Source of the DNA: a virus | Lineage: Duplodnaviria; Caudoviricetes | Strand: one strand, 5' to 3' | IMG/VR virus record: IMGVR_UViG_3300047160_017115 | Span: 1-64,000 of that record | DNA length: 64,000 bases | In this document: in pieces, positions 4,892 through 57,890 of the stretch | Layout: every line of letters begins with the position of its first letter | How positions within the stretch are numbered: the first letter of the stretch is position 1 | Position numbers and translations under genes: made by a program | Notes under the pieces: generated by a model | What the model saw: only the letters and a program-made list of their open reading frames with translations | Databases searched by the model: none | What the model was told of the DNA's origin: nothing

Positions 4892-5332
4892 ATGGAGACA
4901 TCGATGAGTCTCGAAAGCCCCAAGTACGCGGCGCGCGTGATGTATCGCTTCGCGGCCGTGATCAAGCCTTACGGTCCGACGGCCGGGCACAAAGGGAGCA
5001 TCGACTGGTCACTTCCCAGGGACGCGCAGTTTTGCTTTCTGGCCCCCAACGTCGACTCGGCCTACAACAAACTGCGCCATCTGTTCAAGCCGGAGGACCC
5101 CAGGCCGCTCCACGGCTACAAGCGCCTTGAGTTGGCCTACGACCGCGTCAGTGCCGACCCGCGCGACGTCTTCCTCGTCTTCGACAGCCGGGGAAGTCGC
5201 GTGGTCGCCGCTCTCAACGAGGAGGAGGCCTTTAAGTGTGTGGGGCGGGGTTGGAGTTCCAGGATCGACAGGATCGGGCCCTACGAGCCCCCTGACGGGG
5301 TCGTCGACACGAAACCGTTTTTGATCTCCTGA
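4892..5332 (+). CDS. hypothetical protein, paralog 1 of tandem triplet A
   Basis: shares PYGP...KG, AYxKLRxLFxPED, DPRDVF and PPDGVVDTKP with 5516 and 6065 ORFs. Confidence 0.8.
   Translation: METSMSLESPKYAARVMYRFAAVIKPYGPTAGHKGSIDWSLPRDAQFCFLAPNVDSAYNKLRHLFKPEDPRPLHGYKRLELAYDRVSADPRDVFLVFDSRGSRVVAALNEEEAFKCVGRGWSSRIDRIGPYEPPDGVVDTKPFLIS
5310..5322 (-). promoter_or_regulatory. 13-bp motif RAAAACGGTTTYG
   Basis: reverse complement AAAAACGGTTTCG; function unknown. Confidence 0.6.
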
Positions 5333-5340
5333 TCGTCGTT

Positions 5341-5503
5341 TCATGCCCTCCCGGGGGCTTCGTACCCGGAGACTGATCTCTTGAACGACCTGCGGGCCCT
5401 AAACCTCAAGCCTTCCCGGGGGCTTCGTACCCGGAGACCCGGTCCCTCGTGATCGCCGGAAAGTATCCCATCACACCCTCCCGAGGGCTTCGTACCCAGA
5501 GTC
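5341..5503 (+). repeat. CRISPR-like mini-array of three 33-bp hairpin repeats (copies 2-4) with two 32-nt unique spacers
   Basis: repeats at 5341-5373, 5406-5438, 5471-5503; exact 65-nt period; third copy degenerate. Confidence 0.9.
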
Positions 5504-5515
5504 AGAAAGGTACAC

Positions 5516-5995
5516 ATGTCAGCAAGTACTGAGGTCACCACCCCGGCTGGCAAACGCCTGGCCTTCGACTACGAGGTCGGTATCGCCCCCTACGGCCCGA
5601 GGGCCAAGTACAAGGGGCGCATCAGTTACCCGTTCAATAGCCGCCCCGTTTTCAAGTTCAGGGCCGAGAACGGCTTCACGGCGTACAGCAAGCTCCGCGC
5701 ACTGTTCCGTCCGGAGGACGGTAGGGAGCTCGCTAAAGGCCACTACCTGAACATCCCCAAGTTTTACTGCAAAAAGGTAGAGGTTGACCGCCGCGACATC
5801 TTCGTCGTCGGGGTGTGGCACAGGCTCATCGTGGCCGCGCTCAACGTGGAGGACGCGGTGCAGGCTGCCCAGCGTCACATAAAGGCCTACGACCTCGCGC
5901 CCCTCGAGTCGCCTGCCCAGACCGTCGTCGTGGGCAACTATCGCCCACCGGACGGCGTCATCGGCGACAAGGCAGTGCTCCTCCAGTGGCCGTAA
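5516..5995 (+). CDS. hypothetical protein, paralog 2 of triplet A
   Basis: YEVGIAPYGP..KYKG, AYSKLRALFRPED, RRDIFVV, PPDGVIGDK; RBS AGAAAGG. Confidence 0.8.
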   Translation: MSASTEVTTPAGKRLAFDYEVGIAPYGPRAKYKGRISYPFNSRPVFKFRAENGFTAYSKLRALFRPEDGRELAKGHYLNIPKFYCKKVEVDRRDIFVVGVWHRLIVAALNVEDAVQAAQRHIKAYDLAPLESPAQTVVVGNYRPPDGVIGDKAVLLQWP

Positions 5996-6064
5996 CCAAC
6001 TACAGAGGTCCGCTCTAGGGTTGGGCATGTCAGCCGACAACTAGCCTCAGACCAGGAGATTCTC

Positions 6065-6568
6065 GTGGGTTATTTCTACCCACCCGAGATGCGCCTACTG
6101 ACCGAAGATCAAATGCGCGGCATCGGGGCCGACACTCGCAGGTGCTACGAGTACGAGGTCGGCATCGTCGCGCACAAACCGGACGCCATGTTCAAGGGCG
6201 CCATCAGGCGGTACAGGCTCGGGCTAGAGCATTTCAAGTTCAGGGCCCCTAACTACATCACGGCCTACAGTACCCTTCGAAGGCTCTACCTACCCGACGA
6301 CCCCAGGCCGTTACGGGGCGGTAAGGACCTGCCGTACTACGCCGACGAGGTCGCCGCCGACCCGCGCGACGTCTTCGTTGTCTGTAATGTCAGGACGTAC
6401 ACGGTCGCCGCCTTAACCTTGGAAGAGGCGGAAGCCGCTGCGCTCGCTCGTTATAAGTACGTGGCGATGACCGCCGATCCCTACTGGCGAGCGCATTCCC
6501 AGGTCACTCGAGTGGGGCCCTTCGAGCCCCCAGACGGCGTCGTCGACACGAAACCCCTGGTACTCTGA
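6065..6568 (+). CDS. hypothetical protein, paralog 3 of triplet A
   Basis: YEVGIV...FKG, AYSTLRRLYLPDDPRPL, DPRDVFVV, PPDGVVDTKP; RBS AGGAG. Confidence 0.8.
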   Translation: MGYFYPPEMRLLTEDQMRGIGADTRRCYEYEVGIVAHKPDAMFKGAIRRYRLGLEHFKFRAPNYITAYSTLRRLYLPDDPRPLRGGKDLPYYADEVAADPRDVFVVCNVRTYTVAALTLEEAEAAALARYKYVAMTADPYWRAHSQVTRVGPFEPPDGVVDTKPLVL

Positions 6569-6575
6569 GGATCGA

Positions 6576-6809
6576 ATGAGACAACTGCGATACCTGTTCC
6601 GCCCGAGGTTTGCCTTGACGCCTCTAGTCGTTACCAAGGACCGGTGTCAATTTCCCGAGACCGGCAGCTCCACGATCTACAAGAACGTCTACGTCTTCGG
6701 CCTCCGGGTGTATACGAGCCGCGACGCGTACAGAGACCACTGTATACCTCGTACCCATGGGGAGACCGTCTCCTGGCTCGACGACGCTGAGGAGTCCGCC
6801 GGGGATTAG
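6576..6809 (+). CDS. small hypothetical protein
   Basis: 77-aa ORF converging on the integrase with 4-nt overlap. Confidence 0.5.
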   Translation: MRQLRYLFRPRFALTPLVVTKDRCQFPETGSSTIYKNVYVFGLRVYTSRDAYRDHCIPRTHGETVSWLDDAEESAGD

Positions 6810-8008
6810 CCGGTACCGAAGACCCTGTGGAGCTCGCCCCGGGCCTGGCCGGGGATCAGGTGGCGGTACCGGCGGACCATCTCTTCCGTCTGATGGCCCA
6901 TCCACTCGTTGATCAGTCGCTGGTCGACCCCGGCCGCGGCGCAGTTTGACGCGAACGAGTGGCGCAGGACGTGCCACCCCGCCATCACCCTCCACCGCGA
7001 CCCCGCGACGGCCCGGCCGAAGTGGTGGTTGCTCCCGTCCACCGTGACAGGGTCGAGCGTCTTGTCACAGAACAGGTACGGGCCGCCCGGGTGCCGGCCT
7101 AGCCAGTCGTCCAGCACCCCGGCCAGGAACGGAGACACGGGGACCACCCGCGTGGTCCTCTTCGCCTTGTTCTTCTTCAGCTCCCGGATGAGAAACGTCC
7201 CCGTCGCGTGCTCGTAATCCGTCTTGTGTGCGCGGAGCATCTCGCTCCGGCGCATCCCCGTGTGCGCCGCCAGGCAGAACATGGGGTAGACCCAGCCCTT
7301 CCTGTCGTAGGTCGCGACGTGCCCCAGGAGCTCCGCGACCTCCGGCAGGGTCAGGAACAGACAGGCCCAGAGCTCGGCCGCCTTCTTCGAAGAGAGGCCC
7401 GCCGTCTTCTTGACGAGCGCGTCGTAGGTCGCGAAGGGCGTCTTCTCGGTGCCTTTCGGATAAACCAAGCCACGCGACGGGAACTCACCGCTGAGCCCCC
7501 CGTCCCCCACAGCCCAGGTCCACGCGGCCCCGAAGGTGGTGATCTCCTTCTTGGTCGTGACCGGCGACACCTTCCGCCCGTAGCGTCCCGTCTGGGCGGA
7601 GCGTCGCGTGACGTGACGCTGGAGATCGGCCCGCGAGAGCGACGCGACCGCGAAGGACGCCCCCAGCGTTGCCGTCAGGTGCCTCTCGTGCGTCGCGATG
7701 GTGTCGAGGGAGTTGGCCTCCAGCGACGCCTTCAGCGAGTCACGGTACTGCTGGAACAACTGCGAGAGAGTGAGAGGGGCGACTGTGGCCAGGCCGGCAG
7801 CCCCTCCCGAGAGCAGGAACAACGGCAGGTCGACCCCCTCCGGGGCCACGAGCCGACCGGTCTCCAGGTCGTGGAGGTTGGCCTCGACGCGCGAGCGGAG
7901 GGCCTCCGCCTCCCGTTGCGTGCACTTACCGAGGGTGCGCTGGTACTTGCGGCCGGCGAAATAGAAGACGATCCGGTAGGTGTTCCCCCGTCTAGCGACT
8001 GACGCCAT
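6806..8008 (-). CDS. tyrosine recombinase / phage integrase
   Basis: catalytic motifs HTGMRRSE, HVLRHSF, GHQT...YRH; N-terminal arm-binding-like region; start placed at ATG 8008 (ORF open to 8020). Confidence 0.95.
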   Translation of the reverse strand: MASVARRGNTYRIVFYFAGRKYQRTLGKCTQREAEALRSRVEANLHDLETGRLVAPEGVDLPLFLLSGGAAGLATVAPLTLSQLFQQYRDSLKASLEANSLDTIATHERHLTATLGASFAVASLSRADLQRHVTRRSAQTGRYGRKVSPVTTKKEITTFGAAWTWAVGDGGLSGEFPSRGLVYPKGTEKTPFATYDALVKKTAGLSSKKAAELWACLFLTLPEVAELLGHVATYDRKGWVYPMFCLAAHTGMRRSEMLRAHKTDYEHATGTFLIRELKKNKAKRTTRVVPVSPFLAGVLDDWLGRHPGGPYLFCDKTLDPVTVDGSNHHFGRAVAGSRWRVMAGWHVLRHSFASNCAAAGVDQRLINEWMGHQTEEMVRRYRHLIPGQARGELHRVFGTG

Positions 8009-8079
8009 GACGACCTCCAACGCGACCCAACACCACCCAACAAATATCCGTTTTGTATCCAGTCGCCGCCCCTTCGAAC

Positions 8080-8118
8080 AAAAAAAGCGGTCACGGCTTT
8101 CGACGTAACCGCTTTCCC
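8080..8118 (-). terminator. Rho-independent terminator downstream of the tRNA fragment
   Basis: minus strand AAAGCGGTTACG...CGTGACCGCTTTTTTT. Confidence 0.7.
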
Positions 8119-8124
8119 TGTAAG

Positions 8125-8184
8125 TGCCGGAGACAGGACTTGAACCTGCACGGGCATGGTTAGCCCACTAGCCCCTCAAGCTAG
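8125..8184 (-). tRNA. 3' 60-nt fragment of tRNA-Leu(GAG), att core, not a complete tRNA
   Basis: minus strand CTAGC-TTGAGGG-GCTAG anticodon arm, long variable arm, GCAGG-TTCAAGT-CCTGT T-arm, CTCCGGCA acceptor 3' strand; no D-arm or 5' acceptor strand upstream. Confidence 0.88.
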
Positions 8185-8498
8185 ACGAGGGGGTGTTGGG
8201 CCGTATTGCCCTGCGTCGGTTCGCGTGGCGGAAAGAGCGGCGCGGTTTCGACTAGCGGCGATTGCCGTGTTGGGTCGTGTTGTACCGTGTTGGGCCGCGT
8301 GGGTCAACACACGTATCCAGTTTGTATCCACCCCGCAGGTCGACGGACGACGGCGTGGGCTGGCGGCGCTCGTGAACGGCGGGTTATACCGCCGCCCCGG
8401 TCTCGAACTCTAACGGAGGGTCGCGACCTGCCCGCCATGATCCAGGAGACCATCGAGGCCGAGGCAACGATCCGCAACCACTTACCGGGAGGAGATCC

Positions 8499-8753
8499 GT
8501 GTTCGGCTTCCTGAAACACAAACCGACCCCCGAGGCGATCGCCGACGAGCTCATCGAGGCCTTGCGAAGCGCCGCGGGTAAGGAGGACGCCATCTTCCTG
8601 TTCAACCAGGACAGCCTGCGGAAACTCCTGCGCATAACGGTCCGCAAGGCTCGCGGGAAGACCGTCGATTGGGGGTGCCTGACCATCCCTATCCACGAAA
8701 ACGGTTTTGAGGACGAGGACGAGCCCTGGTACGTGGGGCCCGAGCCGTTCTGA
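8499..8753 (+). CDS. small hypothetical protein
   Basis: GTG start after GGAGGAG RBS; 84 aa. Confidence 0.65.
   Translation: MFGFLKHKPTPEAIADELIEALRSAAGKEDAIFLFNQDSLRKLLRITVRKARGKTVDWGCLTIPIHENGFEDEDEPWYVGPEPF
8697..8709 (+). promoter_or_regulatory. 13-bp motif RAAAACGGTTTYG
   Basis: GAAAACGGTTTTG inside CDS. Confidence 0.6.
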
Positions 8754-8790
8754 GCTCCCTATTCCATCCACTGCCCGCGAGACCACAGAG

Positions 8791-9426
8791 ATGATCGTCT
8801 ACAAGTTGACCGACCAACGGATGCAGACTCGCAACGGCTTCCAGTGGGGGCTGGGTGTTACGAAACATACCTCAGGTAAAGGGAAGCTTTGCGGCCCCGG
8901 CTGGCTCCATGCTTACGCCGACCCCCTCGTGGCCGTGTTCATGAACCCGGTCCACGCCGAATTCCGTTTCCCACGGCTATTCGAGGCGGAAGCGAGCGGG
9001 GAGCTCGAGTACGACGGGAATCTAAAGCTCGGCACGACGACGCTAACGCTACGAATAGAACTGGCGCTCCCCGTGCTCTCGGAGTTCGTCCGCGCCAGAG
9101 TAGCGATCAAGGCCGCGCAGCTGGTTTTACCGGACGATGTCCGGCCTGCCTGGCGGAGCTGGGCCAACAAGTGGTTGTCCAGGGAGGACCGTTACACCGG
9201 GTCAGCGTTCGACAACTGGGAGTTACTGGATTACACGCTCAACACGGATTTCTGGGCGGCGTCGCACGCGTCGAGCGCCTGTTTTAACTGCTTTCCCGGT
9301 CACGAGACCTGGGCGGCCTACTCAGCGGCCCTGGCGGTGGAGAAGGCCCAAGGTGCAAGGAAGTGTGAGATACCTCTACCCAAGATGATTCGGGAGGCCA
9401 TCGAGGCCGAGAAGGGGCACCAATGA
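8791..9426 (+). CDS. DUF7666-like domain protein, paralog 1 of 7
   Basis: MIVYKLTD..M.T..GFQW...LC..GWLHAY.DPL.A.FM...H....RLFEAEA N-terminal domain. Confidence 0.8.
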   Translation: MIVYKLTDQRMQTRNGFQWGLGVTKHTSGKGKLCGPGWLHAYADPLVAVFMNPVHAEFRFPRLFEAEASGELEYDGNLKLGTTTLTLRIELALPVLSEFVRARVAIKAAQLVLPDDVRPAWRSWANKWLSREDRYTGSAFDNWELLDYTLNTDFWAASHASSACFNCFPGHETWAAYSAALAVEKAQGARKCEIPLPKMIREAIEAEKGHQ

Positions 9427-10040
9427 TCGTCTACAAGGTTACCGACGATGTCATGCAGACCTTTCGCGGCTACCAGTGGGAACTCAACGTCACGAAGACG
9501 ACGGACGGCGCCGGGAGGTTGTGCGGCAAAGGCTGGCTGCACGCCTACCCCGACACCCTGACGGCCGCGTTCATGTGCGAATTCCACTGCGTATACCCCC
9601 CGAGACGGCTCTTCGAGGCTGAGGCCGGCGAGACCGTCCTACACGCGCCGTTCAAGCTCGGCACGACTGAGCTGACGTTGAAGCGCAAGCTGCCGCTCCC
9701 CGTGATCCCTATGGTTGTCGTGCTGCGTACCACGATCACGGCGGTGCTGCGATACGGAACACCGAGGTACCCCACACCGTGGCACCGCTGGGCAGCGCGG
9801 TGGTTGTCGGGCGTTGACCGGAGCACCAACAGGGCAGAAGGGATCTCAAGTCGATACACGAGCCTGGGGGCCGTAGGCTGTGCCAGTCGTGCCGTCCAAC
9901 ACGCGCTATTCGACCCTTCCTCTTCGCGCGCGTGGGCGGGGCAGGCTCTTCACCATCTCGAAACCGTTTTCGACCTGCCCGCCCTCATCCAGGAGGCCGC
10001 AGAAGCGGAAGGAGAGCTAGTGTGCTCGTCTACAAAGTAA
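9423..10040 (+). CDS. DUF7666-like domain protein, paralog 2 of 7
   Basis: same N-terminal domain; ATGA overlap with paralog 1. Confidence 0.8.
   Translation: MIVYKVTDDVMQTFRGYQWELNVTKTTDGAGRLCGKGWLHAYPDTLTAAFMCEFHCVYPPRRLFEAEAGETVLHAPFKLGTTELTLKRKLPLPVIPMVVVLRTTITAVLRYGTPRYPTPWHRWAARWLSGVDRSTNRAEGISSRYTSLGAVGCASRAVQHALFDPSSSRAWAGQALHHLETVFDLPALIQEAAEAEGELVCSSTK
9959..9971 (-). promoter_or_regulatory. 13-bp motif RAAAACGGTTTYG
   Basis: reverse complement GAAAACGGTTTCG inside CDS. Confidence 0.6.
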
Positions 10041-10651
10041 CTGACGCGAACATGAGGACACGCGGCAACTACCAGTGGGCGCTCAACGTCACGCAGACGA
10101 CGGACGGCCGCGGCGATCTCTGTAGCCAAGGCTGGCTGCACGCCTACCCCGACACCCTGACGGCCGCGTTCATGTGCCACTACCACTGCGCGTTCAAACC
10201 CGCGCGCATGTTCGAGGCGGAGACGGGGGAAGTCGTCCGTAAAGAGACGTTGAAGCTTGGTACGACGGAGTTGACCCTGACACGAGAACTCGCGATCTAC
10301 GAGATCCCCCTCGTCGTTTGCGTACGCACGGCGATCGCGGCAACGCTATCGTTCGTGCACCAACAATTCCACTCAAGCTGGGAAGCGTGGGCAAAGATGT
10401 GGCTGGCGGGTGAGGGTCGCGGTGAATATGACGCCGCCAACGCTTTCACCTACGTCGATTGGTACGAGTACTCCAAGATCTACAGCTTCGAGGCCGCGCA
10501 GTTTCTTAGTCGAGCCGCTAGGGAAGGTCGGGATGATGACGAGATAGAGATTCGGCGGCTCGCGGCAGCGGCCGCGGAAAATCTCAATCGTCACGTCGAC
10601 CTACCGCCCCTCCTTCAGGCGGCGGCCGCGGCCGAGGGATTAACAATATGA
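10022..10651 (+). CDS. DUF7666-like domain protein, paralog 3 of 7
   Basis: GTG start VLVYKVTD; long nucleotide identity with paralog 2 (GGCTGGCTGCACGCCTACCCCGACACCCTGACGGCCGCGTTCATGTGC). Confidence 0.8.
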   Translation: MLVYKVTDANMRTRGNYQWALNVTQTTDGRGDLCSQGWLHAYPDTLTAAFMCHYHCAFKPARMFEAETGEVVRKETLKLGTTELTLTRELAIYEIPLVVCVRTAIAATLSFVHQQFHSSWEAWAKMWLAGEGRGEYDAANAFTYVDWYEYSKIYSFEAAQFLSRAAREGRDDDEIEIRRLAAAAAENLNRHVDLPPLLQAAAAAEGLTI

Positions 10652-11259
10652 GCCACCACACCCTCCATAAACTCGGCGGGGTCATCCTGACCAACCCCAA
10701 GTTCGCCCACAACGTTGGGGGCGCGCTCAGGGCCTGTTCCTGCTTCGGCGTCCCGTCTCTCTGGTGGACCGGGAGCCGCGTGACCCTCGATGTCAAGAAC
10801 GGGGAACGGCTGCCCCGCGAGGAGCGCATGAGGGGCTTCCGTGACGTCGAGATGGTCCGCGACGACCGACCCTTTGACCGCCTCCCCGAGGGCGCGACGC
10901 CCGTCGGCGTGGAGGTCCGCCCGAACGCCGAGAACCTCTTCGCGTTCGAGCACCCCGACAATCCCGTATTCGTCTTTGGCCCCGAGGACGGTTCGCTGTC
11001 GCGCACCGTCCTGGGACAGTGCCACAGGTTCGTCTTCCTACCGACTGCCCACTGCCTCAACCTCGCGACCGCCGTCACCGCCGTCCTCTATGACTGGCGG
11101 CTGAAGCGCTGGAAGGCCGGCCTCGACCCCACGCTGACCCTCGGGGACTGCGTCAACCAGGGCGACGGCGGTTTCCCCGAGAACGAGGACGCCCTCGTCG
11201 GCGTGTCCCCCGAGGGGATGGGGCGCGGTCACACCTCCCGCACAAGGACCTTTCGTTGA
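10648..11259 (+). CDS. SpoU/TrmH-family RNA methyltransferase
   Basis: NPKFAHNVGGALRAC motif 1, FVFGPEDGSL motif 2, CLNLATAVTAVLY motif 3. Confidence 0.9.
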   Translation: MSHHTLHKLGGVILTNPKFAHNVGGALRACSCFGVPSLWWTGSRVTLDVKNGERLPREERMRGFRDVEMVRDDRPFDRLPEGATPVGVEVRPNAENLFAFEHPDNPVFVFGPEDGSLSRTVLGQCHRFVFLPTAHCLNLATAVTAVLYDWRLKRWKAGLDPTLTLGDCVNQGDGGFPENEDALVGVSPEGMGRGHTSRTRTFR

Positions 11260-11618
11260 CACGACCGGACGACCTGTCGGACCCAAACCAACAGGTCCTG
11301 TTGTGGATCATCCTCGACATCGGCCTGGCCGCCGCCCACCTGATCACCAACTCGACCGACGACCACGCCGCGGCCTTGTTCTCCTTCGTCGAGGAAGAGT
11401 ATGAGCTTGTCGACGATCCCGCCGAGCCACGGGCCGCCGCCGTGGGCCGCTGGCTCGCGGACGCCGACGACGAACAGATTGGCGAGCTCGCCACCGCCGT
11501 GCTGGCGCTCGGCGCTGACACCGTGGTGTGCGAGCGCTGCCAGCGCGATGTCCCGTCTCGTACCGCCCATACCCGCCGCGGACGCTGGGTGGGCGACGAA
11601 TGTTGTTGGAAGAAGTAA
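11256..11618 (+). CDS. hypothetical protein with C-terminal Cys cluster
   Basis: 120 aa, CERC...CC; overlaps upstream stop. Confidence 0.5.
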   Translation: MTRPDDLSDPNQQVLLWIILDIGLAAAHLITNSTDDHAAALFSFVEEEYELVDDPAEPRAAAVGRWLADADDEQIGELATAVLALGADTVVCERCQRDVPSRTAHTRRGRWVGDECCWKK

Positions 11619-11651
11619 AGGTCCCCCCAAGAGCAACCCAGGAGATTCACA

Positions 11652-13115
11652 GTGGAAGTCTTCACCTCGCGCTCGACTTCTGAAGGGTCTCTCGACAAGA
11701 AGCCCGCGCCGGCGGCGATGATCCGGTCGCTGCACGCCCTGCTCTACATGACTGACCACAGGCTGGCGAACCTGAAGATCACGAGGGAGTGCGCCCTGCG
11801 TCTCCTGATGAACCAGAAGACCGACGAGGCCGGGCTCACGGAGTTCGAGACCCGCGCGATCGAGGCGTGCGACAAGACCATGAGGGGCGCCAACTTCAGG
11901 AACCTGCAGGCGGCGATGGAGGCCGTGGGCTGGGCAGACAAGGAGGCGGTGTTCCAGGCCGTTATCGACAAGTTCCTCCCCGCCGACGCCGGCCCCCTCT
12001 ACGCCTCCGCCCCCACGGACGACGAGCGAGAAGTGCTCGGGGACCAGGCGACAGCTTACGCCGAGCGACGCGCGTCCTGCGCCGCCAAGGCACGGATCGC
12101 GACGCTGTCCTGTCTCGACGAGGACGGCGTATCTCCGCGACTGGCGCGCTTCATCGCCCTCTCGCTGGTGACCGGGGTGCCGAGCCTGACCCCGGCGTGG
12201 TGGAGCCTCGAGGAGAGGACGTACTTCCGCGACAGGGCCTCCCTCCTCAGGGGTACGGAGACCCTCAACGCCCACGTCGCGGCGCGCCTCTCTGACATCG
12301 CGCTCAAGATCGTCGACACGTTCATCCCCAGGCCCCCTGAGGGCGACGGTTACGAGGCGCCTATGTACCTCGACGACGACCGCGACGAACCTCGCGCCGC
12401 CGTGCCGACGGAGTACGAGAAGTCGACCTTCAAGGGCGACGCCGAGTACGCCGCGCGGAAGAGACACGAAGTGGAGCTCGCGGCCCACGCCCTGCGCTCC
12501 CTGTACTCCGAGGCCGCCTCCGACCGCGTGGTAAACTACCTCGTGAGGAAGGCTTTCGAGTCCTTCATCGACGAGAAGGTCCAGCCCCCCACGGGGTTGA
12601 CGCGCGCCGAGCAGAGGCTGATCGACAGTTACGACGACCTGGACGAGGACGTCAGCGCGATCCTGGCCGCGATCCCCCCTGATAACATCACGAAACAGGT
12701 GTTCATCGCCCACGCCATCGAGACGGGACTGCCCCCGCTACAGAGCGGGAACGAGTTCGACCCGACGCCGACGGCGGCCGAGTGCCTCAGTTGGGGTGCG
12801 CAGGCCGTGCGCTACGGGCTGCTGCGAGCCTGGGCCATGACTGACATCCGCCGGATACAGGCCACGGGCCAGCCCTGGGCCACTATGCGAGCTTTCAAGC
12901 TCTGTCTGATGTCAAATCTACAGACCGAGACCCACCTGGAACCGCCGGCCGACTGGCCCCTCGAGGAGCGCGATTACGCCTCGACGTGGCTCGACGAGAT
13001 CCGCTACGCGAAGACCAGACGGAAGGTAGGCTGGGAGGAGTCTCTCGAGACCAAAATGCTCCTGAACATCTTCGAGGAAGCGTTCAACCAACCGGAGGAG
13101 GTCCTTGCCAGTTAA
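11652..13115 (+). CDS. hypothetical protein (487 aa)
   Basis: long ORF with typical codon bias and upstream GGAG; no motif recognised. Confidence 0.75.
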   Translation: MEVFTSRSTSEGSLDKKPAPAAMIRSLHALLYMTDHRLANLKITRECALRLLMNQKTDEAGLTEFETRAIEACDKTMRGANFRNLQAAMEAVGWADKEAVFQAVIDKFLPADAGPLYASAPTDDEREVLGDQATAYAERRASCAAKARIATLSCLDEDGVSPRLARFIALSLVTGVPSLTPAWWSLEERTYFRDRASLLRGTETLNAHVAARLSDIALKIVDTFIPRPPEGDGYEAPMYLDDDRDEPRAAVPTEYEKSTFKGDAEYAARKRHEVELAAHALRSLYSEAASDRVVNYLVRKAFESFIDEKVQPPTGLTRAEQRLIDSYDDLDEDVSAILAAIPPDNITKQVFIAHAIETGLPPLQSGNEFDPTPTAAECLSWGAQAVRYGLLRAWAMTDIRRIQATGQPWATMRAFKLCLMSNLQTETHLEPPADWPLEERDYASTWLDEIRYAKTRRKVGWEESLETKMLLNIFEEAFNQPEEVLAS

Positions 13116-13554
13116 CCCAACCTCGATCGGCGCGCTGCGTGCGGCCATCGAGGGACTGTCCGACAAAGCCGCCCTCCTGCCCGATTGGGCCGAGGGTCAA
13201 CCCCCCGAGGACAGTGAGTACGGTATTGAGGTCTACGGCTTCGAGAAGGGGGCCGACGGGGGCGGCCCCTTCCTCAAACTGAAAGTCGGCCTGTACGACC
13301 TGTACGAGGACACCGAGGACGCCGTCGACCTCGGCCCCATCCCCGTCCACAAGTTCGAGTTCGCCGCGGCCTACATGGCCCGAGCCTTCGTCGACGGCTA
13401 TCTCCTGACGAATCCGGTCACCGATCTCCTCTCCAAGGAACCGGCGTACGAACACGATACCAAACGTTGGATCGTGTCGATCCGGTCCCACCTCCCCGCG
13501 TTCCTCGGCATGAAGTCAGACGCCGAGGGGAATATCTGGCACAGGGCCAAGTGA
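13105..13554 (+). CDS. hypothetical protein
   Basis: 149 aa, GGAGG RBS, coupled to neighbours. Confidence 0.7.
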   Translation: MPVNPTSIGALRAAIEGLSDKAALLPDWAEGQPPEDSEYGIEVYGFEKGADGGGPFLKLKVGLYDLYEDTEDAVDLGPIPVHKFEFAAAYMARAFVDGYLLTNPVTDLLSKEPAYEHDTKRWIVSIRSHLPAFLGMKSDAEGNIWHRAK

Positions 13555-13841
13555 AGACCAGGATTCACGTCAACAGGTTTGTCATCGCCCGCAACCGGAA
13601 GACCGGCGAGTGCCAGCCACCGCTGCGTGCGAAGACCTACAAGGGGAACGAGAAGGCCGGTCAGTTCGACATCCTGGTCCGCGGCGAGGTCGTAGCCAGT
13701 GTCGTGTACCACCCAGAGGCCCCGCTGTCGTGCGGGGCCGTGGCCTGGGTCGAGACCGAGCATGAGGTGAGGGCAGTTTGTACTACGAGATCTACCCCAA
13801 CGGGGGCTGTGGGGGTCGCCGCCCCCTGTACGAGTGCGTAG
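13551..13841 (+). CDS. small conserved phage protein
   Basis: GTG start KTRIHVNR..I..N.KTG...PPL...Y.P..PLSCGA.AWVET pattern that I recognise from many phages. Confidence 0.7.
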   Translation: MKTRIHVNRFVIARNRKTGECQPPLRAKTYKGNEKAGQFDILVRGEVVASVVYHPEAPLSCGAVAWVETEHEVRAVCTTRSTPTGAVGVAAPCTSA

Positions 13842-14194
13842 TCAAGATCCGCGACGAGAACGGGTCCTGGCTCAACCAGTTCCTTTTCAGCGGCGTCGTG
13901 GAGGTCTTGAGGGGCGACGAGGAGGAGTACCGGCTCGGGCGCGAGCGCATCGAGCTCCACCCGCTGAACAGGGTGTACGGCTTCCTGCTGGTCAACGCGT
14001 ACAAGGAAACACACGCCGAGCCGGACGAGACCGTCGAACGCGCCTACAAGTTCTGCAGGCTCGTCGCCGAGGGCGTGCTCACGAACGCTGACGAGTACGG
14101 CAGGGCTCTCCAGCAGTATTACGACGAAGGTGTGCTCCGTGAGGCATTGCTCCCGTGGAAGGGAGCCCTTCTGAGCGCCGCGAACGCTAACTGA
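13778..14194 (+). CDS. hypothetical protein
   Basis: 138 aa, good codon bias, overlaps previous gene end. Confidence 0.65.
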   Translation: MYYEIYPNGGCGGRRPLYECVVKIRDENGSWLNQFLFSGVVEVLRGDEEEYRLGRERIELHPLNRVYGFLLVNAYKETHAEPDETVERAYKFCRLVAEGVLTNADEYGRALQQYYDEGVLREALLPWKGALLSAANAN

Positions 14195-14281: not shown

Positions 14282-14986
14282 GTGTTCATCCGGGGCAATT
14301 CGAAGTTAGGGGAGGACGTCTGGACCTGGTCGATCCTCGCGGGTCATACCTGTCCCGGTAAGTCGGCCCCCTGCCTTTCGGAATGCTACGCCCTCCACGG
14401 GCATTTTGTATGGGCCAGCACGATCGCGTCCCACCAGAGCCGATGGGAACACTCCCTGAAGCGTAGTTTCGTCAAGGACGCGCTCGCCGAGCTGGAGAAG
14501 CTCAAACCCAAGGTGCTACGCGTGCACGTCGCCGGCGATTTCTACTCGCCGGCCTACGTCCGCAAGTGGCACAAGATCATCGAGGCCACGCCAGGCACTC
14601 AGTTCTTCCTGTTCAGTCGCAGCTGGCGGGTCCCGAACATCCTCCGCGAGCTCCGCAAGCTCGCCGGCCTCAAGAACGTGTGCATGTGGTTCTCCTGCGA
14701 CCAGGAGACCGGCGCACCTCCCTTGGCCCGCAACGTCCGCCGCGCCTACATGTCGCTCAACGACGACGACGCCCCCTTGTACCGCGTCGACCTCGTCTTC
14801 AGGGCGAAGCGGGGCACCACGCAAAAGTTCAACAAGAGAGGTCACTTCGTCTGCCCTGTCGAGCAGGGGATCGTACGCCAGAAGCACATCACGTGCTCCA
14901 CGTGCCGCCTCTGCTTCACCCCAGGGCCCATGCCCAGAAAGGAACCCCAACGTGCCGCGCGCCAACCGACCCTTGCGAGTGTCTAA
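14282..14986 (+). CDS. Gene product 88 (GP88)-family, radical-SAM-like Fe-S protein
   Basis: NSKLG...TCPG..APC..ECYA CxxxxxxCxxxC cluster, RVHVAGDFYS, FLFSRSW, C-terminal CSTCRLC. Confidence 0.8.
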   Translation: MFIRGNSKLGEDVWTWSILAGHTCPGKSAPCLSECYALHGHFVWASTIASHQSRWEHSLKRSFVKDALAELEKLKPKVLRVHVAGDFYSPAYVRKWHKIIEATPGTQFFLFSRSWRVPNILRELRKLAGLKNVCMWFSCDQETGAPPLARNVRRAYMSLNDDDAPLYRVDLVFRAKRGTTQKFNKRGHFVCPVEQGIVRQKHITCSTCRLCFTPGPMPRKEPQRAARQPTLASV

Positions 14987-16205: not shown

Positions 16206-16218
16206 CAAAACCGTTTTT
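16206..16218 (-). promoter_or_regulatory. 13-bp motif RAAAACGGTTTYG
   Basis: reverse complement AAAAACGGTTTTG, intergenic between convergent genes. Confidence 0.6.
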
Positions 16219-16250
16219 GTGGCCGGTCCCGTGGGAAGGAGCCCACGGGG

Positions 16251-21707: not shown

Positions 21708-22190
21708 ATGCCCAAGGCCGCGAGGCCGACCTGCGTCATGTGCGGGCGCGCGTTGCCCAAGTACACCAGATGCCGCTACAGCGAACCTGGTGAGAGCAAA
21801 CAGGAGTACGCGAATCGCCACTGCGGCGGCGACCTGTCGAAGATCACGACTTACAAGGACTGGCACGACGGTAGTAGTTGTCGCGGCTACATTTGGGACG
21901 GCGAGTACGGCGCTCACTCCACCGGCCCCGGCCCGTTCTGTTCCACGGCGTGCCAGTTAGCATGGGCCAACAAGTCCGCCCCCCGTAACGGCGACCGTAC
22001 CGTCGTGATCCGGCTCGAGATCACCGAAAACGGTTTTGGGCTGGACCTCAAGAAAGATGTATCCGAGTACCTTGCGAACTTCTCCAAGACCCTCAAGAAC
22101 TGCCAAGACATGCCGTCAGACCTAGTGCTCTTCGACCGTTCTGGGGTCGTGTGTGGCACGTTCTACTACTACGACCGACGGCTCGGATAG
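21708..22190 (+). CDS. zinc-finger protein, paralog 3 of triplet C
   Basis: PTCVMCG..L ... YG...FCSTAC; AAGGA RBS. Confidence 0.75.
   Translation: MPKAARPTCVMCGRALPKYTRCRYSEPGESKQEYANRHCGGDLSKITTYKDWHDGSSCRGYIWDGEYGAHSTGPGPFCSTACQLAWANKSAPRNGDRTVVIRLEITENGFGLDLKKDVSEYLANFSKTLKNCQDMPSDLVLFDRSGVVCGTFYYYDRRLG
22026..22038 (+). promoter_or_regulatory. 13-bp motif RAAAACGGTTTYG
   Basis: GAAAACGGTTTTG inside CDS. Confidence 0.6.
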
Positions 22191-22205: not shown

Positions 22206-22293
22206 TCGTGCCGCCCCGGAGGCTTCGTATCCGGAGACCGTGATCAGGATCGTCAAACCTTCATGCCGCCCCGGAGGCTTCGTATCCGGAGAC
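22206..22293 (+). repeat. pair of 33-bp hairpin repeats (copies 5-6) with 22-nt spacer
   Basis: TCRTGCCGCCCCGGAGGCTTCGTATCCGGAGAC at 22206-22238 and 22261-22293; compensatory G-C to A-T stem pair. Confidence 0.92.
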
Positions 22294-24248: not shown

Positions 24249-24362
24249 GAAGCACGTCCTTGTGTGCCGCGGGCCGCCGACCGTGGCGGCTTGTCTAGTC
24301 TGACGTGGCCGGCCTACGCTGAACGGCGTGACCGACCGAAACACATAGGAAGTGAGCAGAAC

Positions 24363-29443: not shown

Positions 29444-29573
29444 ACACAGGCTCGCCGTGACCATTCCCGACGGCGCCTGCCCCGCCGTCATCGAGGCCGC
29501 CCTCATCGATCGCTGCCGGCGGTTGACGCCCTTACGGCACCTCGACGACTTCGAGTTCGAGGTCGTCAATCTC

Positions 29574-29586
29574 GAAAACGGTTTTG
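29574..29586 (+). promoter_or_regulatory. 13-bp motif RAAAACGGTTTYG
   Basis: GAAAACGGTTTTG about 30 nt upstream of dcd. Confidence 0.6.
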
Positions 29587-30907: not shown

Positions 30908-31681
30908 TTGCCTGATCTGAACTTCGACATTACGGCTGTAGCCTCCGACCCTGTCTCCGCTGCCGTCCGAACCGCCGTCTTCGGTCCGCTCATGCGGCGC
31001 GACGTCCCTCCACACGACGACCCCGAGTGGCCGCGCCGTTACGCTCAACTCAGAACCGTGTGGCACAAACGTATCGCGTCCCTCCAGGCGCATGGGTGGG
31101 ACGTCGCCGAGAACGCCCTCCGTCGCCAGTACATGCGGAACTGCCCTCCCGTGGGGGCTCGCTCGGTCGACAGCGCTCGTAGCTGTCATCGCTCCCGTGT
31201 CTGTCCGTTCTGCTACGGTCGAGAACGGGTGAGGGAGCCGCTCGAGCGTCTGCTCCCCTACCTGGGGGAGGACAAGATGGTGGTGTCCTTCCGAGCCGTC
31301 GCCGACTTCCAGCGCGTCGCTCAGTTCGAGCCGCTACTCCTCTCCATGATAAAGGCCGACAGGGCGCGTGAGGCCCGCCAACTTACCGGGGCCGGTTACG
31401 TCAACCAGCGCCTCTACCTGGACCGGGAGGTTGTGGGGATTGAGCGTCGCGGCATCTTCGTCTGCCCGAAAGGACCTTTGTCGTCTCTCGGTGGTGTTAA
31501 GGTGTGGCGTCACCACCCGACTGAGGAGGCACTTTGTAAGGCGGCGTCGTACGCCCTCTCCTACTCACCCTGGTTCCTTCAGGGGTTGCCGCAGGACGTC
31601 GTCGTTGTCATGAAAGGTTTGGGCAAGACGCGCCTGCTGGTAGGTTACGGGCTCCAGGCCGACACCGAGTCGGACGAGTAG
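30908..31681 (+). CDS. hypothetical protein with SCHRSRVCPFC zinc knuckle
   Basis: TTG start after GCAGGAG; CxxxxxCPxC motif. Confidence 0.65.
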   Translation: MPDLNFDITAVASDPVSAAVRTAVFGPLMRRDVPPHDDPEWPRRYAQLRTVWHKRIASLQAHGWDVAENALRRQYMRNCPPVGARSVDSARSCHRSRVCPFCYGRERVREPLERLLPYLGEDKMVVSFRAVADFQRVAQFEPLLLSMIKADRAREARQLTGAGYVNQRLYLDREVVGIERRGIFVCPKGPLSSLGGVKVWRHHPTEEALCKAASYALSYSPWFLQGLPQDVVVVMKGLGKTRLLVGYGLQADTESDE

Positions 31682-31693
31682 AAAACGGTTTCG
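31681..31693 (+). promoter_or_regulatory. 13-bp motif RAAAACGGTTTYG
   Basis: GAAAACGGTTTCG intergenic, directly upstream of PIG-L gene. Confidence 0.6.
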
Positions 31694-32433: not shown

Positions 32434-32466
32434 TCATGCCGTCCCGGGGGCTTCATACCCGGAGAC
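32434..32466 (+). repeat. dispersed 33-bp hairpin repeat, copy 7
   Basis: TCATGCCGTCCCGGGGGCTTCATACCCGGAGAC. Confidence 0.92.
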
Positions 32467-32540
32467 TTGACCATCGACGAGCTCATCGAACTTGAGCTTC
32501 TATGAGGGCCTGGTCTTCCTTTCAAACGTCTACGGGTCTG

Positions 32541-32573
32541 TCATGCCGCCCCGGGGGCTTCGTACCCGGAGAT
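32541..32573 (+). repeat. dispersed 33-bp hairpin repeat, copy 8
   Basis: TCATGCCGCCCCGGGGGCTTCGTACCCGGAGAT, runs into GGAG RBS of ATG 32585. Confidence 0.92.
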
Positions 32574-37571: not shown

Positions 37572-38682
37572 TCCCGTTGCCGTCCTCGTCAGTGACGCCC
37601 ACCTCCAGGACCGAGCCTGGGCCCACCGTCAGATCGAGGGGGACGCCTACTACTCGTTCGGGCAGGTCGTCGACTACGCGATCAACAATCATCTGGACAT
37701 CATCGGGGCCGGCGACCTCATCGACCGCAGGGTGAACTCCTCCGGCCCCATCCACGCGATGCTCGCCGGCCTTCAGAAGCTCTGGAACAACAGCCGGCGG
37801 TTCTACCACATCCAGGGCCAGCACGAGGCTGACCCCTCGCCCTGGTTCAACCTGTCCCACGCTTCCATCCACGTCCATAAGCAGTCGTTCCAGGTAGGCC
37901 ACATCCGGGTCTACGGTTTGGACTTCACGCCCGCGGACTCCCTGAAGGCTGAACTCGACGCGATCCCCCCGGGCACGGACCTCCTGGTGTGCCACCAGGT
38001 CTGGGATGAGTTCATGGGGGTGCACTGCGGGGCGCAGGCGTCCTTCGCCGACGTCCCCGTCGTCTCCACCGTGCTGACGGGAGACCTTCACGAGAACAGG
38101 ACGCTCAGCGCACGCGGCAAGGATGGACAGCGGCTCACCATTCACTCCCTGGGCTCGACCTGCATGCAGGACATCGCCGAGCCCCCCTCCAAGTTCTTCG
38201 GCGTCCTACGTGACGACCTGTCCGTCCGGCGTGTACGGCTACAGACTCGGCCGTTTATCGCCGCCGGCTTACTCCTGACGGAGGCCGACGTCGAGGCGTT
38301 CCTGGGTCGTACTGAGGCCGAGTTGTCGCGTCTGGCGACGGCAGACACGTCCCTGCCGCCTGAGATTGCCAGGCCCCTTGTCAGGGTGGGGTACTCTCAT
38401 AAGCTCGGGGACCTGTCGCGTCGGGTGCACAAGGTCTTCGGCGAGCGCGCCCACCTGTTTTTGAAGGAAGTCCCCCCTGAGCGCCCGAAAACGGTTTTGA
38501 GACCCGAGGGGGCTGAGGAGGCCGTCCGCACAGGGGCCATGACCCTGGAGGCGGCGCTCCCTTCGGTCCTGTCCGAGGATGACGAGCCTGAACTGTACGC
38601 CCTCGCGCTGCGGGTGCTCGGGGCGCCCGACAAGGCCGCTGAGGTAAACGCCTGGGTCCGGGAGGCCCTCTCTGATGCCTAA
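37564..38682 (+). CDS. Mre11/SbcD-family metallophosphoesterase nuclease
   Basis: VSDAHL, AGDLID, QGQHE, CHQ, TGDLH, SLGS motifs. Confidence 0.88.
   Translation: MPSPVAVLVSDAHLQDRAWAHRQIEGDAYYSFGQVVDYAINNHLDIIGAGDLIDRRVNSSGPIHAMLAGLQKLWNNSRRFYHIQGQHEADPSPWFNLSHASIHVHKQSFQVGHIRVYGLDFTPADSLKAELDAIPPGTDLLVCHQVWDEFMGVHCGAQASFADVPVVSTVLTGDLHENRTLSARGKDGQRLTIHSLGSTCMQDIAEPPSKFFGVLRDDLSVRRVRLQTRPFIAAGLLLTEADVEAFLGRTEAELSRLATADTSLPPEIARPLVRVGYSHKLGDLSRRVHKVFGERAHLFLKEVPPERPKTVLRPEGAEEAVRTGAMTLEAALPSVLSEDDEPELYALALRVLGAPDKAAEVNAWVREALSDA
38487..38499 (+). promoter_or_regulatory. 13-bp motif RAAAACGGTTTYG
   Basis: GAAAACGGTTTTG inside CDS. Confidence 0.6.
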
Positions 38683-55772: not shown

Positions 55773-55784
55773 CGTAGGGCCCAC

Positions 55785-55812
55785 CCCGGCGCCGACCGCT
55801 GTCGGCGCCGGG
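55785..55812 (+). terminator. perfect 12-bp GC hairpin after stop codon
   Basis: CCCGGCGCCGAC-cgct-GTCGGCGCCGGG. Confidence 0.45.
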
Positions 55813-55831
55813 TGCGGTCCTGCGCGCGCAC

Positions 55832-57292
55832 ATGCCACGTCAAATCAAGCCACGACGGCCCCCCGAGGAGCGCGACAACTCCGCCCAGCCGGGGGAAGAT
55901 GATGATGTGCTCTCTCCTCTGGTCATCAAGCCTGTCGAGGAGACCGAACCGTCGTCCTCCTCGGCGCTGCGGGCATCGATCCCGTGCGCCCCGAAGGACC
56001 GCCCACGACTCGCGCTCCCGTCTGACCTCAAGCTCGACAAGAAGTCCAAGGCCAAGGCCCTCGAGCTCTGGGGCGGCGCGCAGGGCAGGCGACGCCTCGA
56101 CACCTTTATGCAGAAGTCCGCCGAGGAGGCACGGAAGAAGTACGGACACAACGCCGTGCTCATCGGGGACGACGTCAAAAACCTCGTCTGCGGTATCCCG
56201 TGTCCGGCGCTCTCTTTCCAGTATCTCAGCGGACAGGACATCTTCCCGCTGGGCATGATCATCCAGCTCCTGGGGAAGTGGGGGAGCCTGAAATCGGCCC
56301 TCCTCTACGAGTTCTTTCGTTGGTTCGAGCTCGCCGGCGGTGGCGGTTTCCTCAAGGAGAATGAGACCAAGTTTTCCGCCGACCTGTGTGCGTCGCTCAT
56401 GGGCCACGATTCCTTTGCCGAGTGCCCAATCCAGGTCGCCAGGTGCGACTCGGTCGAGGGTTGGCAGGAGTCGACGACCACGACGATCGACCAGCTCAAG
56501 AAGTACATGAAGGGGACCAAGGAGGAACCGGGCCCCGGGCGCACCCAACCGTTCCTGATCGGGATCGATTCGATCATGGGCAAGGTCACCAGGGAGACCC
56601 TGGGCAAGGTGCAGGAGGCGGGTTCCCTCGGGCGTAACCACCCGGTCGAGGCCCTGATGATCAATAACTACATGAAGTCCTTGCCGCAGATGATCGACAA
56701 CTGGCCTGTAGGTGTTGTGCTGGTCAACCATCTCAAGCCACGCAAGGACGAAAAGGGGCATGACGTCCGCGGCAAGTCTGGCGGCATGTCCGTCGACTTC
56801 CAGGAGAGTTTCGAGTACGAGACGCGTAAGGTCCGCGACCTGCAAAGTTCCCAGTGGGACGGCGTCGAGATCGCGATCAAGTGCATCAAAAGCTCTTACG
56901 GCAATACCGGCCGGCTGATCCACACCCGGATGCTCTGGTGGGAGGAAGACGACCCGGTGACCGCCGAGCCGATGCAGCGGACCTTCTTCGACTGGGGCTG
57001 GTCGACCGTTCACATGCTGACGACGTTACAGGGCCGGCTCAAGGAGCGGCTCGACAACAGTGGGTTCCATCTCAAAGCGGAGCACGTCTCGCCGGTGCAG
57101 GCCGACTGCTGGAGCAAAACTCTGGGAATCCCGAAAGGATCCCCCTTGAGTTGGACAGAGACTGGTGATCTCATTCATGCGGATCCTGATCTGATGCTCA
57201 AGTTGCGGCGTGCCCTGGCAATCAAGCAACGGCCTCTGCTGGCAGGGGACTACCTGCGCCAACTGGAGGCCAAGGCGGGAGACCTCCCCTGA
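55832..57292 (+). CDS. RecA/UvsX-like recombinase
   Basis: variant P-loop GKWGSLKS, FLKENE, Walker B IGIDSI, VNHL, KSGG, IKSSY. Confidence 0.78.
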   Translation: MPRQIKPRRPPEERDNSAQPGEDDDVLSPLVIKPVEETEPSSSSALRASIPCAPKDRPRLALPSDLKLDKKSKAKALELWGGAQGRRRLDTFMQKSAEEARKKYGHNAVLIGDDVKNLVCGIPCPALSFQYLSGQDIFPLGMIIQLLGKWGSLKSALLYEFFRWFELAGGGGFLKENETKFSADLCASLMGHDSFAECPIQVARCDSVEGWQESTTTTIDQLKKYMKGTKEEPGPGRTQPFLIGIDSIMGKVTRETLGKVQEAGSLGRNHPVEALMINNYMKSLPQMIDNWPVGVVLVNHLKPRKDEKGHDVRGKSGGMSVDFQESFEYETRKVRDLQSSQWDGVEIAIKCIKSSYGNTGRLIHTRMLWWEEDDPVTAEPMQRTFFDWGWSTVHMLTTLQGRLKERLDNSGFHLKAEHVSPVQADCWSKTLGIPKGSPLSWTETGDLIHADPDLMLKLRRALAIKQRPLLAGDYLRQLEAKAGDLP

Positions 57293-57870
57293 TGGATTTC
57301 TTCGCGCGGATGGGGTCTGGTGGTCGCGACCGCATGGAGGAGGCCGCGAACCTCAGGTACGAGACTCTCAAGGTCAAGTTCGTCATGTCCCGTTCGGGCC
57401 TGGGTCCCCAGGAGGTCCGGCGTCTCAGCCGGCTCCATGAGGACCGGTACGGCGTCCCGGGGCTGTCGTTCGGGATCTTCCGTGAGGAGTACCCGACCTA
57501 CCCGGTGCTGTTGCAGTGCTCGCGCCTCGAAGGCCTGCGACTCCACACCGACCCCAAGTCGATCCTCCCCGTCTGGTTCAAGAACTTCGAGAGCCTCCCC
57601 TTCGTGCCCCCCTTCGTCGCGTTCCACGATTCCATCGTGGCCGTCGAGAAACTGGGGGGTCGTGGGGTCGGGCTCGTCTTCCCCCGCAAGGGGTTCCAGC
57701 AAGGCCTCGTCGTCCATACCGCCGTAGCCAACGGCTCCGGTTGGGAACAGGGCCCGTGTTTCTGTTTCAGGGGCGGTCGCAAGGGCGCGCGGCTCGACCT
57801 CTTCGTCAGGCCGTTCGTGGCGCTCGTTGACGAGATCTATAACAACGGCCACGGGTGGTCGCCCGACTAG
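57292..57870 (+). CDS. hypothetical protein (possible resolvase-like)
   Basis: 192 aa, coupled to RecA-like gene; no firm motif. Confidence 0.6.
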   Translation: MDFFARMGSGGRDRMEEAANLRYETLKVKFVMSRSGLGPQEVRRLSRLHEDRYGVPGLSFGIFREEYPTYPVLLQCSRLEGLRLHTDPKSILPVWFKNFESLPFVPPFVAFHDSIVAVEKLGGRGVGLVFPRKGFQQGLVVHTAVANGSGWEQGPCFCFRGGRKGARLDLFVRPFVALVDEIYNNGHGWSPD

Positions 57871-57877
57871 CGACCTA

Positions 57878-57890
57878 CAAAACCGTTTTC
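57878..57890 (-). promoter_or_regulatory. 13-bp motif RAAAACGGTTTYG
   Basis: reverse complement GAAAACGGTTTTG, intergenic. Confidence 0.6.

Follow-up and report, generated by a model that had tools for sequence, protein, structure and literature searches.

The first 64,000 nucleotides of the virus record IMGVR_UViG_3300047160_017115 (Duplodnaviria; Caudoviricetes), a single virus sequence of 87,878 bp with 65.4% GC, form the window considered here. The short word RAAAACGGTTTYG and its close variants are spread along it in both orientations. With their flanks they make up a nearly palindromic 14-mer, at which a DNA-binding protein of ParB type encoded by the phage most likely docks; the arrangement is of a known kind, with a new protein and a new site. 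The best candidate for this protein is P0121, encoded on the + strand at 57897..59003, directly behind a copy of the motif whose position is conserved in related phages. We favour, with evenly divided confidence, the view that the sites represent an autoregulatory operator that was multiplied into a genome-wide operator set, with P0121 as its predicted reader.

Copy number, form and placement of the motif

Eleven exact matches to RAAAACGGTTTYG are present in the window, at the coordinates and on the strands listed in a first-pass annotation of the same DNA, and this number was never reached in 100 dinucleotide-preserving shuffles of the window, which gave a mean of 0.01 copies. Genome-wide, the record has 15 exact copies and one further copy ending in T at 65251. 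The enrichment also survives the codon-preserving shuffle that the annotation had proposed as a check: permutation of synonymous codons within the called genes left a mean of 0.15 copies and permutation of the codon order a mean of 0.003, against the 15 observed. The motif tops the plain 12-mer count of the whole genome. It was not flagged by maximal-order Markov k-mer scoring because its sub-words are equally enriched.

Together with its variants the motif has 19 sites in the 87.9-kb record, 12 of them inside the window. Since position -1 is a C in 17 of the 19 copies, the unit is a 14-mer, and with flanks it reads C-R-A-A-A-M-C-G-K-T-T-T-Y-G. On the + strand the four central bases are ACGG in eight sites, the complement CCGT in another eight and the symmetric CCGG in three (3757, 71353 and 86991), while ACGT is never found. 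The first of these symmetric copies had been described as a one-base-insertion variant near 3758, but it is a substitution of the same length, CGAAACCGGTTTTG, with CCGG for ACGG, and the two others lie beyond the window. All occurrences of AAANNNNTTT in the genome fall within the 19 sites. A reading with an odd centre, AAAAC-S-GTTTT, was rejected because neither the three CCGG copies nor the related phage G001 conform to it.

Outside positions -1 to 16 the information content is about zero, the flanks of the 19 sites being unrelated. The weak outer conservation, a C at -1 and a G at +16, shows that a longer palindrome has been worn down to the present motif. Of two paralogous pairs of gene ends, each has the motif in one member and lacks it in the other, and from these one-sided pairs and the unrelated flanks it follows that the copies are not by-products of larger duplications. 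A scan of IMG/VR for the 14-mer CAAAAACGGTTTTG returned single matches only, at chance level, and was uninformative; contigs from four soil DNA runs contained short low-depth pieces identical to the window and no strain variants.

The placement of the sites departs strongly from random placement. Eleven of the 19 are intergenic where 2.65 are expected (P<2e-4), eight lie at most 40 nt upstream of a + strand start (0.82 expected, P<2e-4) and four at most 15 nt after a stop codon (0.37 expected, P=0.0006). In the window, the symmetric copy at 3757..3770 is intergenic, its final G being the first base of the GTG start of a MoxR-like gene at 3770. The copy at 16206..16219 (-) follows immediately on the TGA of gene 14952-16205, between convergent genes, and the copy at 29573..29586 (+) lies 28 nt upstream of the ATG of a dCTP-deaminase-like gene at 29615. 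At 31680..31693 (+) the motif overlaps the TAG of gene 30908-31681, with the next start (31704) 10 nt further on. The positionally conserved copy, 57878..57891 (-), occupies the gap between a 192-aa gene and the ParB-like helix-turn-helix (HTH) gene of P0121.

The seven copies that are clearly inside genes use all three reading frames. Two of them encode ENGF, one at 8696..8709 (+) in gene 8499-8753, 44 nt ahead of its stop, and one at 22025..22038 (+) in gene 21708-22190, about 150 nt from the stop. The others encode KPFL (5310..5323, -, within the last 10 codons of gene 4892-5332, after which a mini-array of a hairpin element follows), ETVF (9959..9972, -, near the 3' end of gene 9423-10040), KTVL (38486..38499, +, in gene 37543-38682), KNGF (46207..46220, +, in the SF2 helicase gene 45017-46531) and QNRF (50486..50499, -, in the primase gene 49541-50629, about 126 nt upstream of the DNA polymerase A (PolA) start). 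About 50 nt downstream of the copy at 9959..9972 the next paralogue starts (10022), and the paralogous position at 10593-10637 is without the motif. The first-pass annotation had placed copies both in intergenic gaps and in coding sequences in different frames and had taken this as selection on DNA rather than protein. Both points are borne out: the use of three frames, the survival of the codon-aware shuffles and the intergenic bias support selection on the DNA.

Gaps between sites had earlier appeared to be often near 7-8 kb. With all 19 sites they run from 1.1 to 7.7 kb with a mean of 4.6 kb, and the spacing is more even than random: the coefficient of variation of the gaps is 0.47 (P=0.001 for a value this low), and the largest gap, 7.7 kb, is smaller than random placement gives (P=0.0024). 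About 90% of the genes are on the + strand, yet the orientation of the centre is mixed at 8:8:3, which is what a site recognised in duplex DNA would show and a promoter or RNA signal would not.

Four copies are found in the first ~14 kb (window 1-14000), a region with a tyrosine integrase gene (6806-8020, -), a MoxR AAA+ gene, a gene for a 747-aa HATPase_c_3 protein and an HTH_17 gene, all without orthologue in the relatives described below. This suggests either a rapid gain of sites or a residence of the accessory region in this genome that was long enough for sites to arise.

Genome-specific versions and the conserved junction

A megablast search against cultured phages gave no match and a tblastn search with PolA reached at most 27% identity to them, so the phage has no cultured relative. 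Uncultured relatives were found through the PolA-UDG fusion protein; their PolA is 42-70% identical, with 63-70% in the nearest, and the gene order is common to this genome and the relatives. Complete relatives measure 225-235 kb; of a genome this long the record would probably represent about one third. In a scan of genome contigs no prophage or host was found, the sole match being a weak one to a UDG domain in a Chloroflexi metagenome-assembled genome. The fusion protein itself (50626-53850), a DNA polymerase A whose N-terminal domain is UDG-like (family 4), is the hallmark of the phage group with 393 matches at E<=1e-30. In two relatives (L126 6526-10677 and L127 8427-12467) its gene has a LAGLIDADG insertion, either an intein or a homing endonuclease.

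The exact motif is absent from the relatives G001 to G004. G001 (107 kb) has eight copies of CTCAAAA-[GCGG/CCGC]-TTTTGAG in both orientations, which is its top 12-mer, and seven of the eight lie within about 10 nt after a stop codon, most of them directly before the next start. The same arms recur in G004 in three copies of CTCAAAA-[CCAC/CCAT/ATGG]-TTTTGAG, and G002 has its own version, CTAAAAGCCANTTTTGAG, in about six copies. Read on the other strand, the motif of this genome differs from that of G001 in one central base. In both genomes the asymmetric centre is commoner than independent half-sites predict, with at least 16 of 19 sites hetero here (P=0.0017) and eight of eight in G001 (P=0.004). 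The more distant relative G003 (224,528 bp) carries a dispersed 20-mer of its own, TCTCTAATAGCGATAACAGA, in seven to nine copies on both strands, for example at 109568, 172052, 177792, 195380, 211022 and 218141; its ends are TCT...AGA as in the motif of G001 and G004 and its core is unrelated.

The 18-20 nt palindrome of G001 could fold into a hairpin of 8 bp with four nucleotides in the loop (-5.4 to -7.5 kcal/mol) between a stop codon and the next start. The motif might then be a hairpin that works in RNA or single-stranded DNA, as a terminator, an attenuator, an RNA-processing site or a translational-coupling hairpin, which we consider very improbable. The RNA folds of the copies in this genome are weak, at 0 to -4.6 kcal/mol, and Watson-Crick pairing between positions 2 and 13 (R and Y) is seen in 8 of the 19 copies against 9.6 expected if they were independent, so that there is no covariation of the arms. 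In half of the transcripts the loop would read ACGG and in the other half CCGU, with no other centre, which is natural for duplex DNA and unnatural for an RNA signal. In consensus scans no copy overlaps a promoter or terminator match, both counts being at shuffle level, and seven copies are inside genes. Hairpin, terminator and sigma-70 promoter were rejected on these grounds together with the mixed orientation. An intrinsic terminator has a GC-rich stem and a U-tract, and here the terminator scan returned no copy and the folds are weak; a sigma-70-type promoter has -35/-10 hexamers in one orientation, and here there is no overlapping match and the orientation is mixed.

One copy has a fixed place in the shared gene order, which runs PolA, a 620-aa gene, a UvsX-like gene, a gene of about 190 aa, the junction palindrome and the P0121-family gene. 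The copy at this junction has each genome's own centre: CCGT in this genome (G000), CCGC in G001, CCAC in G004, CTGG in G002 and CCAC in L124. A palindrome is present at the junction in 10 of the 12 phages examined. In L163 it is a perfect 22-24-bp palindrome, the only one of its kind in 23 kb, and L166 carries TTCCAAAAGTGGTTTTTGGAA; in L126 (74.5% GC) it is CCGGTTC-ATGA-GAACCGG, with 7-bp arms and a 4-bp spacer, the same architecture. For a prospective test, three further P0121-family loci (L168, L169 and L170) were picked blind from a profile search, and two of the three have a palindrome at the junction. L168 carries CATAAAATGTGGTTTTTG, and L169 has a perfect 26-bp AT-rich palindrome there; the sequence CCATTTC-TA-GAAATGG is found at the junction of L169. 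The third locus, L170, has a different gene context and no upstream palindrome, but TTGAAAACGTTTTCAA is found 15 nt past the gene. In the same loci, palindromes with arms of at least 7 occur at 4.0 per kb beside the P0121-family gene and at 1.0 per kb overall. Between the orthologues that flank the junction, G003 has no word of the TCT...AGA type. A second shared junction, just upstream of the orthologue of gene 37543-38682, has a copy in G001, G004 and G002; in this genome the copy is inside the gene instead. The family member of L170 adjoins genes for a reverse transcriptase (RVT_1), an integrase and a DDE transposase (L170 3255-4610 and 156-1667).

The junction copies also bear on the idea of a selfish miniature palindromic repeat, similar to REP/BIME, that spreads by itself and has no trans-acting reader. 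The motif is dispersed, palindromic, present in both orientations and often found just past stop codons, all of which such a repeat would share. However, in each genome the copy at the orthologous junction shifts together with the rest, genes contain copies that keep their frame, the shared part is only 14-18 bp between unrelated flanks and the hairpins are weak, and we give this explanation hardly any credence. The REP/BIME palindrome, which is strictly extragenic, has a stable hairpin and moves by means of a RAYT transposase, was also rejected as a class, in view of seven to eight copies in genes and the weak hairpins; no search was aimed at RAYT.

The candidate reader P0121 and the proposed role of the sites

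The likely real start of P0121 is the ATG at 57987, which gives a protein of 338 aa with a ParB/Noc-type HTH DNA-binding domain (DUF1016_N / HTH_ParB) followed by long C-terminal helices and an acidic tail. For P0121 alone the DUF1016_N match is below threshold (E 0.002) though it extends across the whole profile. Among the orthologues DUF1016_N is found in nine of nine (best E 2e-08) and HTH_ParB in four of nine (best E 4e-04), and a profile of the orthologues has Spo0J of B. subtilis as its top match in the PDB (E 0.0038). The family is large, with at least 316 clusters at E<=1e-30. P0121 lacks the N-terminal CTPase domain of ParB: none of the nine orthologues matches ParB_N at E<=0.1.

The AlphaFold2 model of P0121 has a core pLDDT of about 90 and is all-helical from residue 9. 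In a VIA-align search with this model, ranks 1-7 and 9-13 are twelve DNA-binding-domain chains of ParB, Noc and Spo0J at Z 7.0-9.0, a range that, for an all-helical model, the tool warns can be non-specific. These alignments extend over 100-132 residues, mostly at an rmsd of about 3 Å, and include all 116 residues of the Noc domain; the best match is 6y93_B (Z 9.0), the DNA-binding domain of Noc in complex with NBS. Foldseek gave a probability above 0.85 for ParB or Noc chains only. In agreement with the lack of a CTPase domain, only about 25-40 residues precede the aligned domain in the model, the VIA-align alignments beginning at residues 23-43, and the C-terminal helices could serve for dimerisation.

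Among the conserved core proteins that were scanned, P0121 is the only recognisable sequence-specific DNA binder. The domain scan covered about 60 open reading frames (ORFs), with about a third of the genome's ORFs outside it, and most of the conserved core proteins are without recognisable family. Three other candidate binders had been named in the first-pass annotation, the HTH_17 gene at 2941, the gene at 14952 and the Ant-like gene at 34936 (ORF ~35047). They have no orthologue in G001, G002 and G004 and therefore cannot be a reader that is shared with these motif-sharing relatives.

We suggest that a protein of the phage, sequence-specific and probably dimeric, binds the motif copies as double-stranded DNA, and P0121 is the best candidate for it. 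The ancestral site would be the palindrome directly upstream of the P0121 gene, acting as an autoregulatory operator. In this lineage and in that of G001 further copies would have arisen until there was about one per 4.6-13 kb. Most of them occupy short gaps that separate co-directional genes, and they often overlie the ribosome-binding or start region. Occupied sites could then act as dispersed operators or roadblocks, by which one protein tunes or silences many transcription units at once.

Several points weigh against this proposal. The link between P0121 and the sites is one of adjacency and fold, the structural scores being in the range for which the tool gives its warning, and a transcriptional effect of the sites is conjecture. 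The P0121 gene sits in the replication/recombination module and not beside the integrase, as that of an immunity repressor would. L165 has a P0121-family gene and no palindrome upstream of it. The positions of the sites are not conserved between phages save for the P0121 junction and the second junction, the latter in G001, G004 and G002 only. A simple symmetric homodimer fails to explain the excess of asymmetric centres. Moreover, the real binder could lie elsewhere, with about one third of the ORFs outside the domain scan and the record probably covering about a third of the genome.

Such a different binder could be another protein of the phage, whose gene may lie in the missing two thirds of a genome of about 230 kb, or a host protein, in which case the copy at P0121 would mark one regulated promoter among many. 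The many core proteins without recognisable family leave room for it, and the asymmetric centre is ill-suited to a plain homodimer. Against it, the versions differ among related phages of one habitat type, which speaks against a common host factor, the association with the P0121-family junction held in the blind-picked loci, and no other conserved DNA-binding domain was found among the scanned proteins. We regard this explanation as unlikely.

It is also conceivable that P0121 reads these same sites in an architectural role, the copies being evenly spaced landing pads for compaction, tethering or organisation of the genome or for marking of the phage's own DNA. Noc on NBS and ParB on dispersed parS would be the models for such a role of a ParB/Noc-type DNA-binding domain, and the sites are spaced more evenly than by chance. 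For the copies deep within genes (46207, 22025 and 38486) there is no obvious operator target, and a conserved SMC/Rad50-like ATPase is encoded in the same module. Yet P0121 has no CTPase domain, the part by which ParB, Noc and KorB clamp and spread, no ParA-type partner is present among the roughly 60 ORFs scanned of this partial record, and the bias to positions just upstream of start codons is predicted by regulation and not by organisation. Overall we assign an architectural role a small but appreciable probability.

A further role follows from the neighbour of P0121. The conserved 192-aa protein P0122 (57292..57870, +) travels with P0121, and the two could form a split DUF1016/YhcG-like site-specific nuclease or nickase. 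The motif copies would then be sites of programmed nicks or breaks that seed recombination-dependent replication throughout the large phage genome, with one version per lineage. Canonical DUF1016 proteins fuse this DNA-binding domain to a PD-(D/E)XK nuclease according to the Pfam architecture, the gene pair adjoins the UvsX-like recombinase in the replication module, even spacing suits initiation sites, and an asymmetric centre could define the strand. Among the first 50 VIA-align neighbours of the P0122 model, about half have restriction-endonuclease-like folds, which weakly suggests a core of this type. However, all Z values are below 5 (best 4.9), Foldseek gave no nuclease match with a probability above 0.2, an atlas search with P0122 returned no usable match, and the P0122 family has no invariant Asp or (D/E)xK motif, which makes the nuclease improbable. 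The asymmetric centre, the even spacing and the copies deep in genes thus keep the architectural role alive, and the nuclease-target role at low odds, beside the operator set that we favour.

Relation to known systems and other features of the genome

The IncP plasmid RK2 carries 12 copies of the palindromic operator OB. The protein that reads this one repeated operator on RK2/RP4 is KorB, of the ParB HTH type, and with some copies a few bp from promoters and others far from them it exerts global control (PMC11790492). With P0121 as the predicted reader, the present system is similar in that a ParB-type HTH protein has a palindromic site many times around a mobile genome. It differs in that P0121 consists only of the DNA-binding domain and helices, whereas KorB has an N-terminal CTPase clamp and the partners KorA and IncC. 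In OB (TTTAGCGGCTAAA) the T-tract comes first, whereas here the A-tract does, and the genome is that of a phage and not a plasmid.

The stoperators of cluster A mycobacteriophages (read by gp71 in L5 and gp69 in Bxb1) are tens of 13-14 bp sites in short gaps between co-directional genes. Their sequence varies from phage to phage in step with the divergence of the protein that binds them, and one copy accompanies the gene of the regulator itself (PMC6550527, PMC9283540). Stoperators are asymmetric, they run one way with respect to transcription, and the immunity repressor that recognises them is monomeric (PMC9283540, PMC6550527). Many copies in short co-directional gaps and genome-specific versions are found here as well. 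In contrast to stoperators, the arms of the present motif are palindromic and its orientation is divided 8:8:3, and P0121 is of another fold family than the stoperator repressor and is encoded in the replication module. In the Streptomyces phage phiC31, a GC-rich temperate phage, the repressor binds CIR operators, 17-bp inverted repeats in well over a dozen intergenic places. The sequence and the repressor family differ from those considered here, and the gene of the phiC31 repressor belongs to the immunity region.

The Noc protein of Bacillus and its relatives recognises numerous 16-bp palindromes (NBS) scattered around the chromosome (PMC8429893), and the specificity of the ParB/Noc family shifts through few residues (PMC7383237). 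By analogy, such few-residue shifts could produce the genome-specific versions of the motif. P0121 shares the ParB-type HTH DNA-binding domain with these proteins; it differs in having no N-terminal ParB/Srx CTPase domain, and no membrane-targeting helix was identified in it. The half-sites differ as well, since NBS and parS have the order TTTC...GAAA and the A-tract comes first here, AAAA...TTTT; a TTTC...GAAA palindrome is found only in L169.

The first-pass annotation had proposed parS/matS-like or stoperator-like binding sites. A DNA-binding site fits the data best and the analogies are apt by way of the ParB-type HTH, but the sites do not belong to parS, matS or the stoperators because the order of the half-sites and the sequence differ, P0121 is without the CTPase domain and the orientation is mixed. 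On the same tests (CTPase domain, half-site order, one-way orientation) the system is a member of neither KorB-OB nor the stoperators.

If the proposed reading is correct, one short DNA word serves to control or organise the genomes of a large group of GC-rich soil phages, all of them uncultured, and the reader is a stripped-down ParB-type protein without CTPase clamp. It would be a third independent genome-wide single-operator system beside KorB-OB and the stoperators, and its versions would form a natural series of protein and site for the study of drift in DNA-binding specificity. The motif can further be used as an annotation handle, marking gene junctions and probable regulatory units in genomes in which about 80% of the proteins are without known family.

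A second dispersed repeat, the hairpin element ...CATGCC.T-CCCGGGGGCTTCGTACCCGGAGA, is present 14 times, always on the + strand; its copies lie at gene boundaries and are often arranged in tandem. In the window they are at 3520-3542, 5350-5502 (three copies), 22215-22292 (two), 32443-32572 (two), 34537, 41392 and 62591-62661 (two), and beyond it at ~78617 and ~83478. The element has no fixed spacing to the 14-mer and is thus a separate feature; it could be a phage promoter or a processing signal. Directly before one of its copies, at 3474-3501, there is a strong terminator-like hairpin with a 12-bp stem of which 11 pairs are G-C, followed by a T-rich tail.

Seven genes of about 200 aa, with starts at 8791, 9423, 10022, 39394, 40058, 40728 and 48909, form a paralogue family in which all members begin M-I/L-V-Y-K-L/V/F-T-D; the family matches no known family. 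The genes at 16251-17507 and 22314-24344 are among the very few on the minus strand and are conserved in G001, G002 and G003, the latter gene having a weak match to the terminase GpA ATPase and lying far from any structural module. Finally, genes for a dCTP-deaminase-like protein, ThyX, a family-2 glycosyltransferase and a heptose kinase/adenylyltransferase-like protein are found together (29615-30283 and 62670-63587 in the window, 25-840 and 5595-7052 in L138), which may hint at modified DNA bases or sugar decoration.

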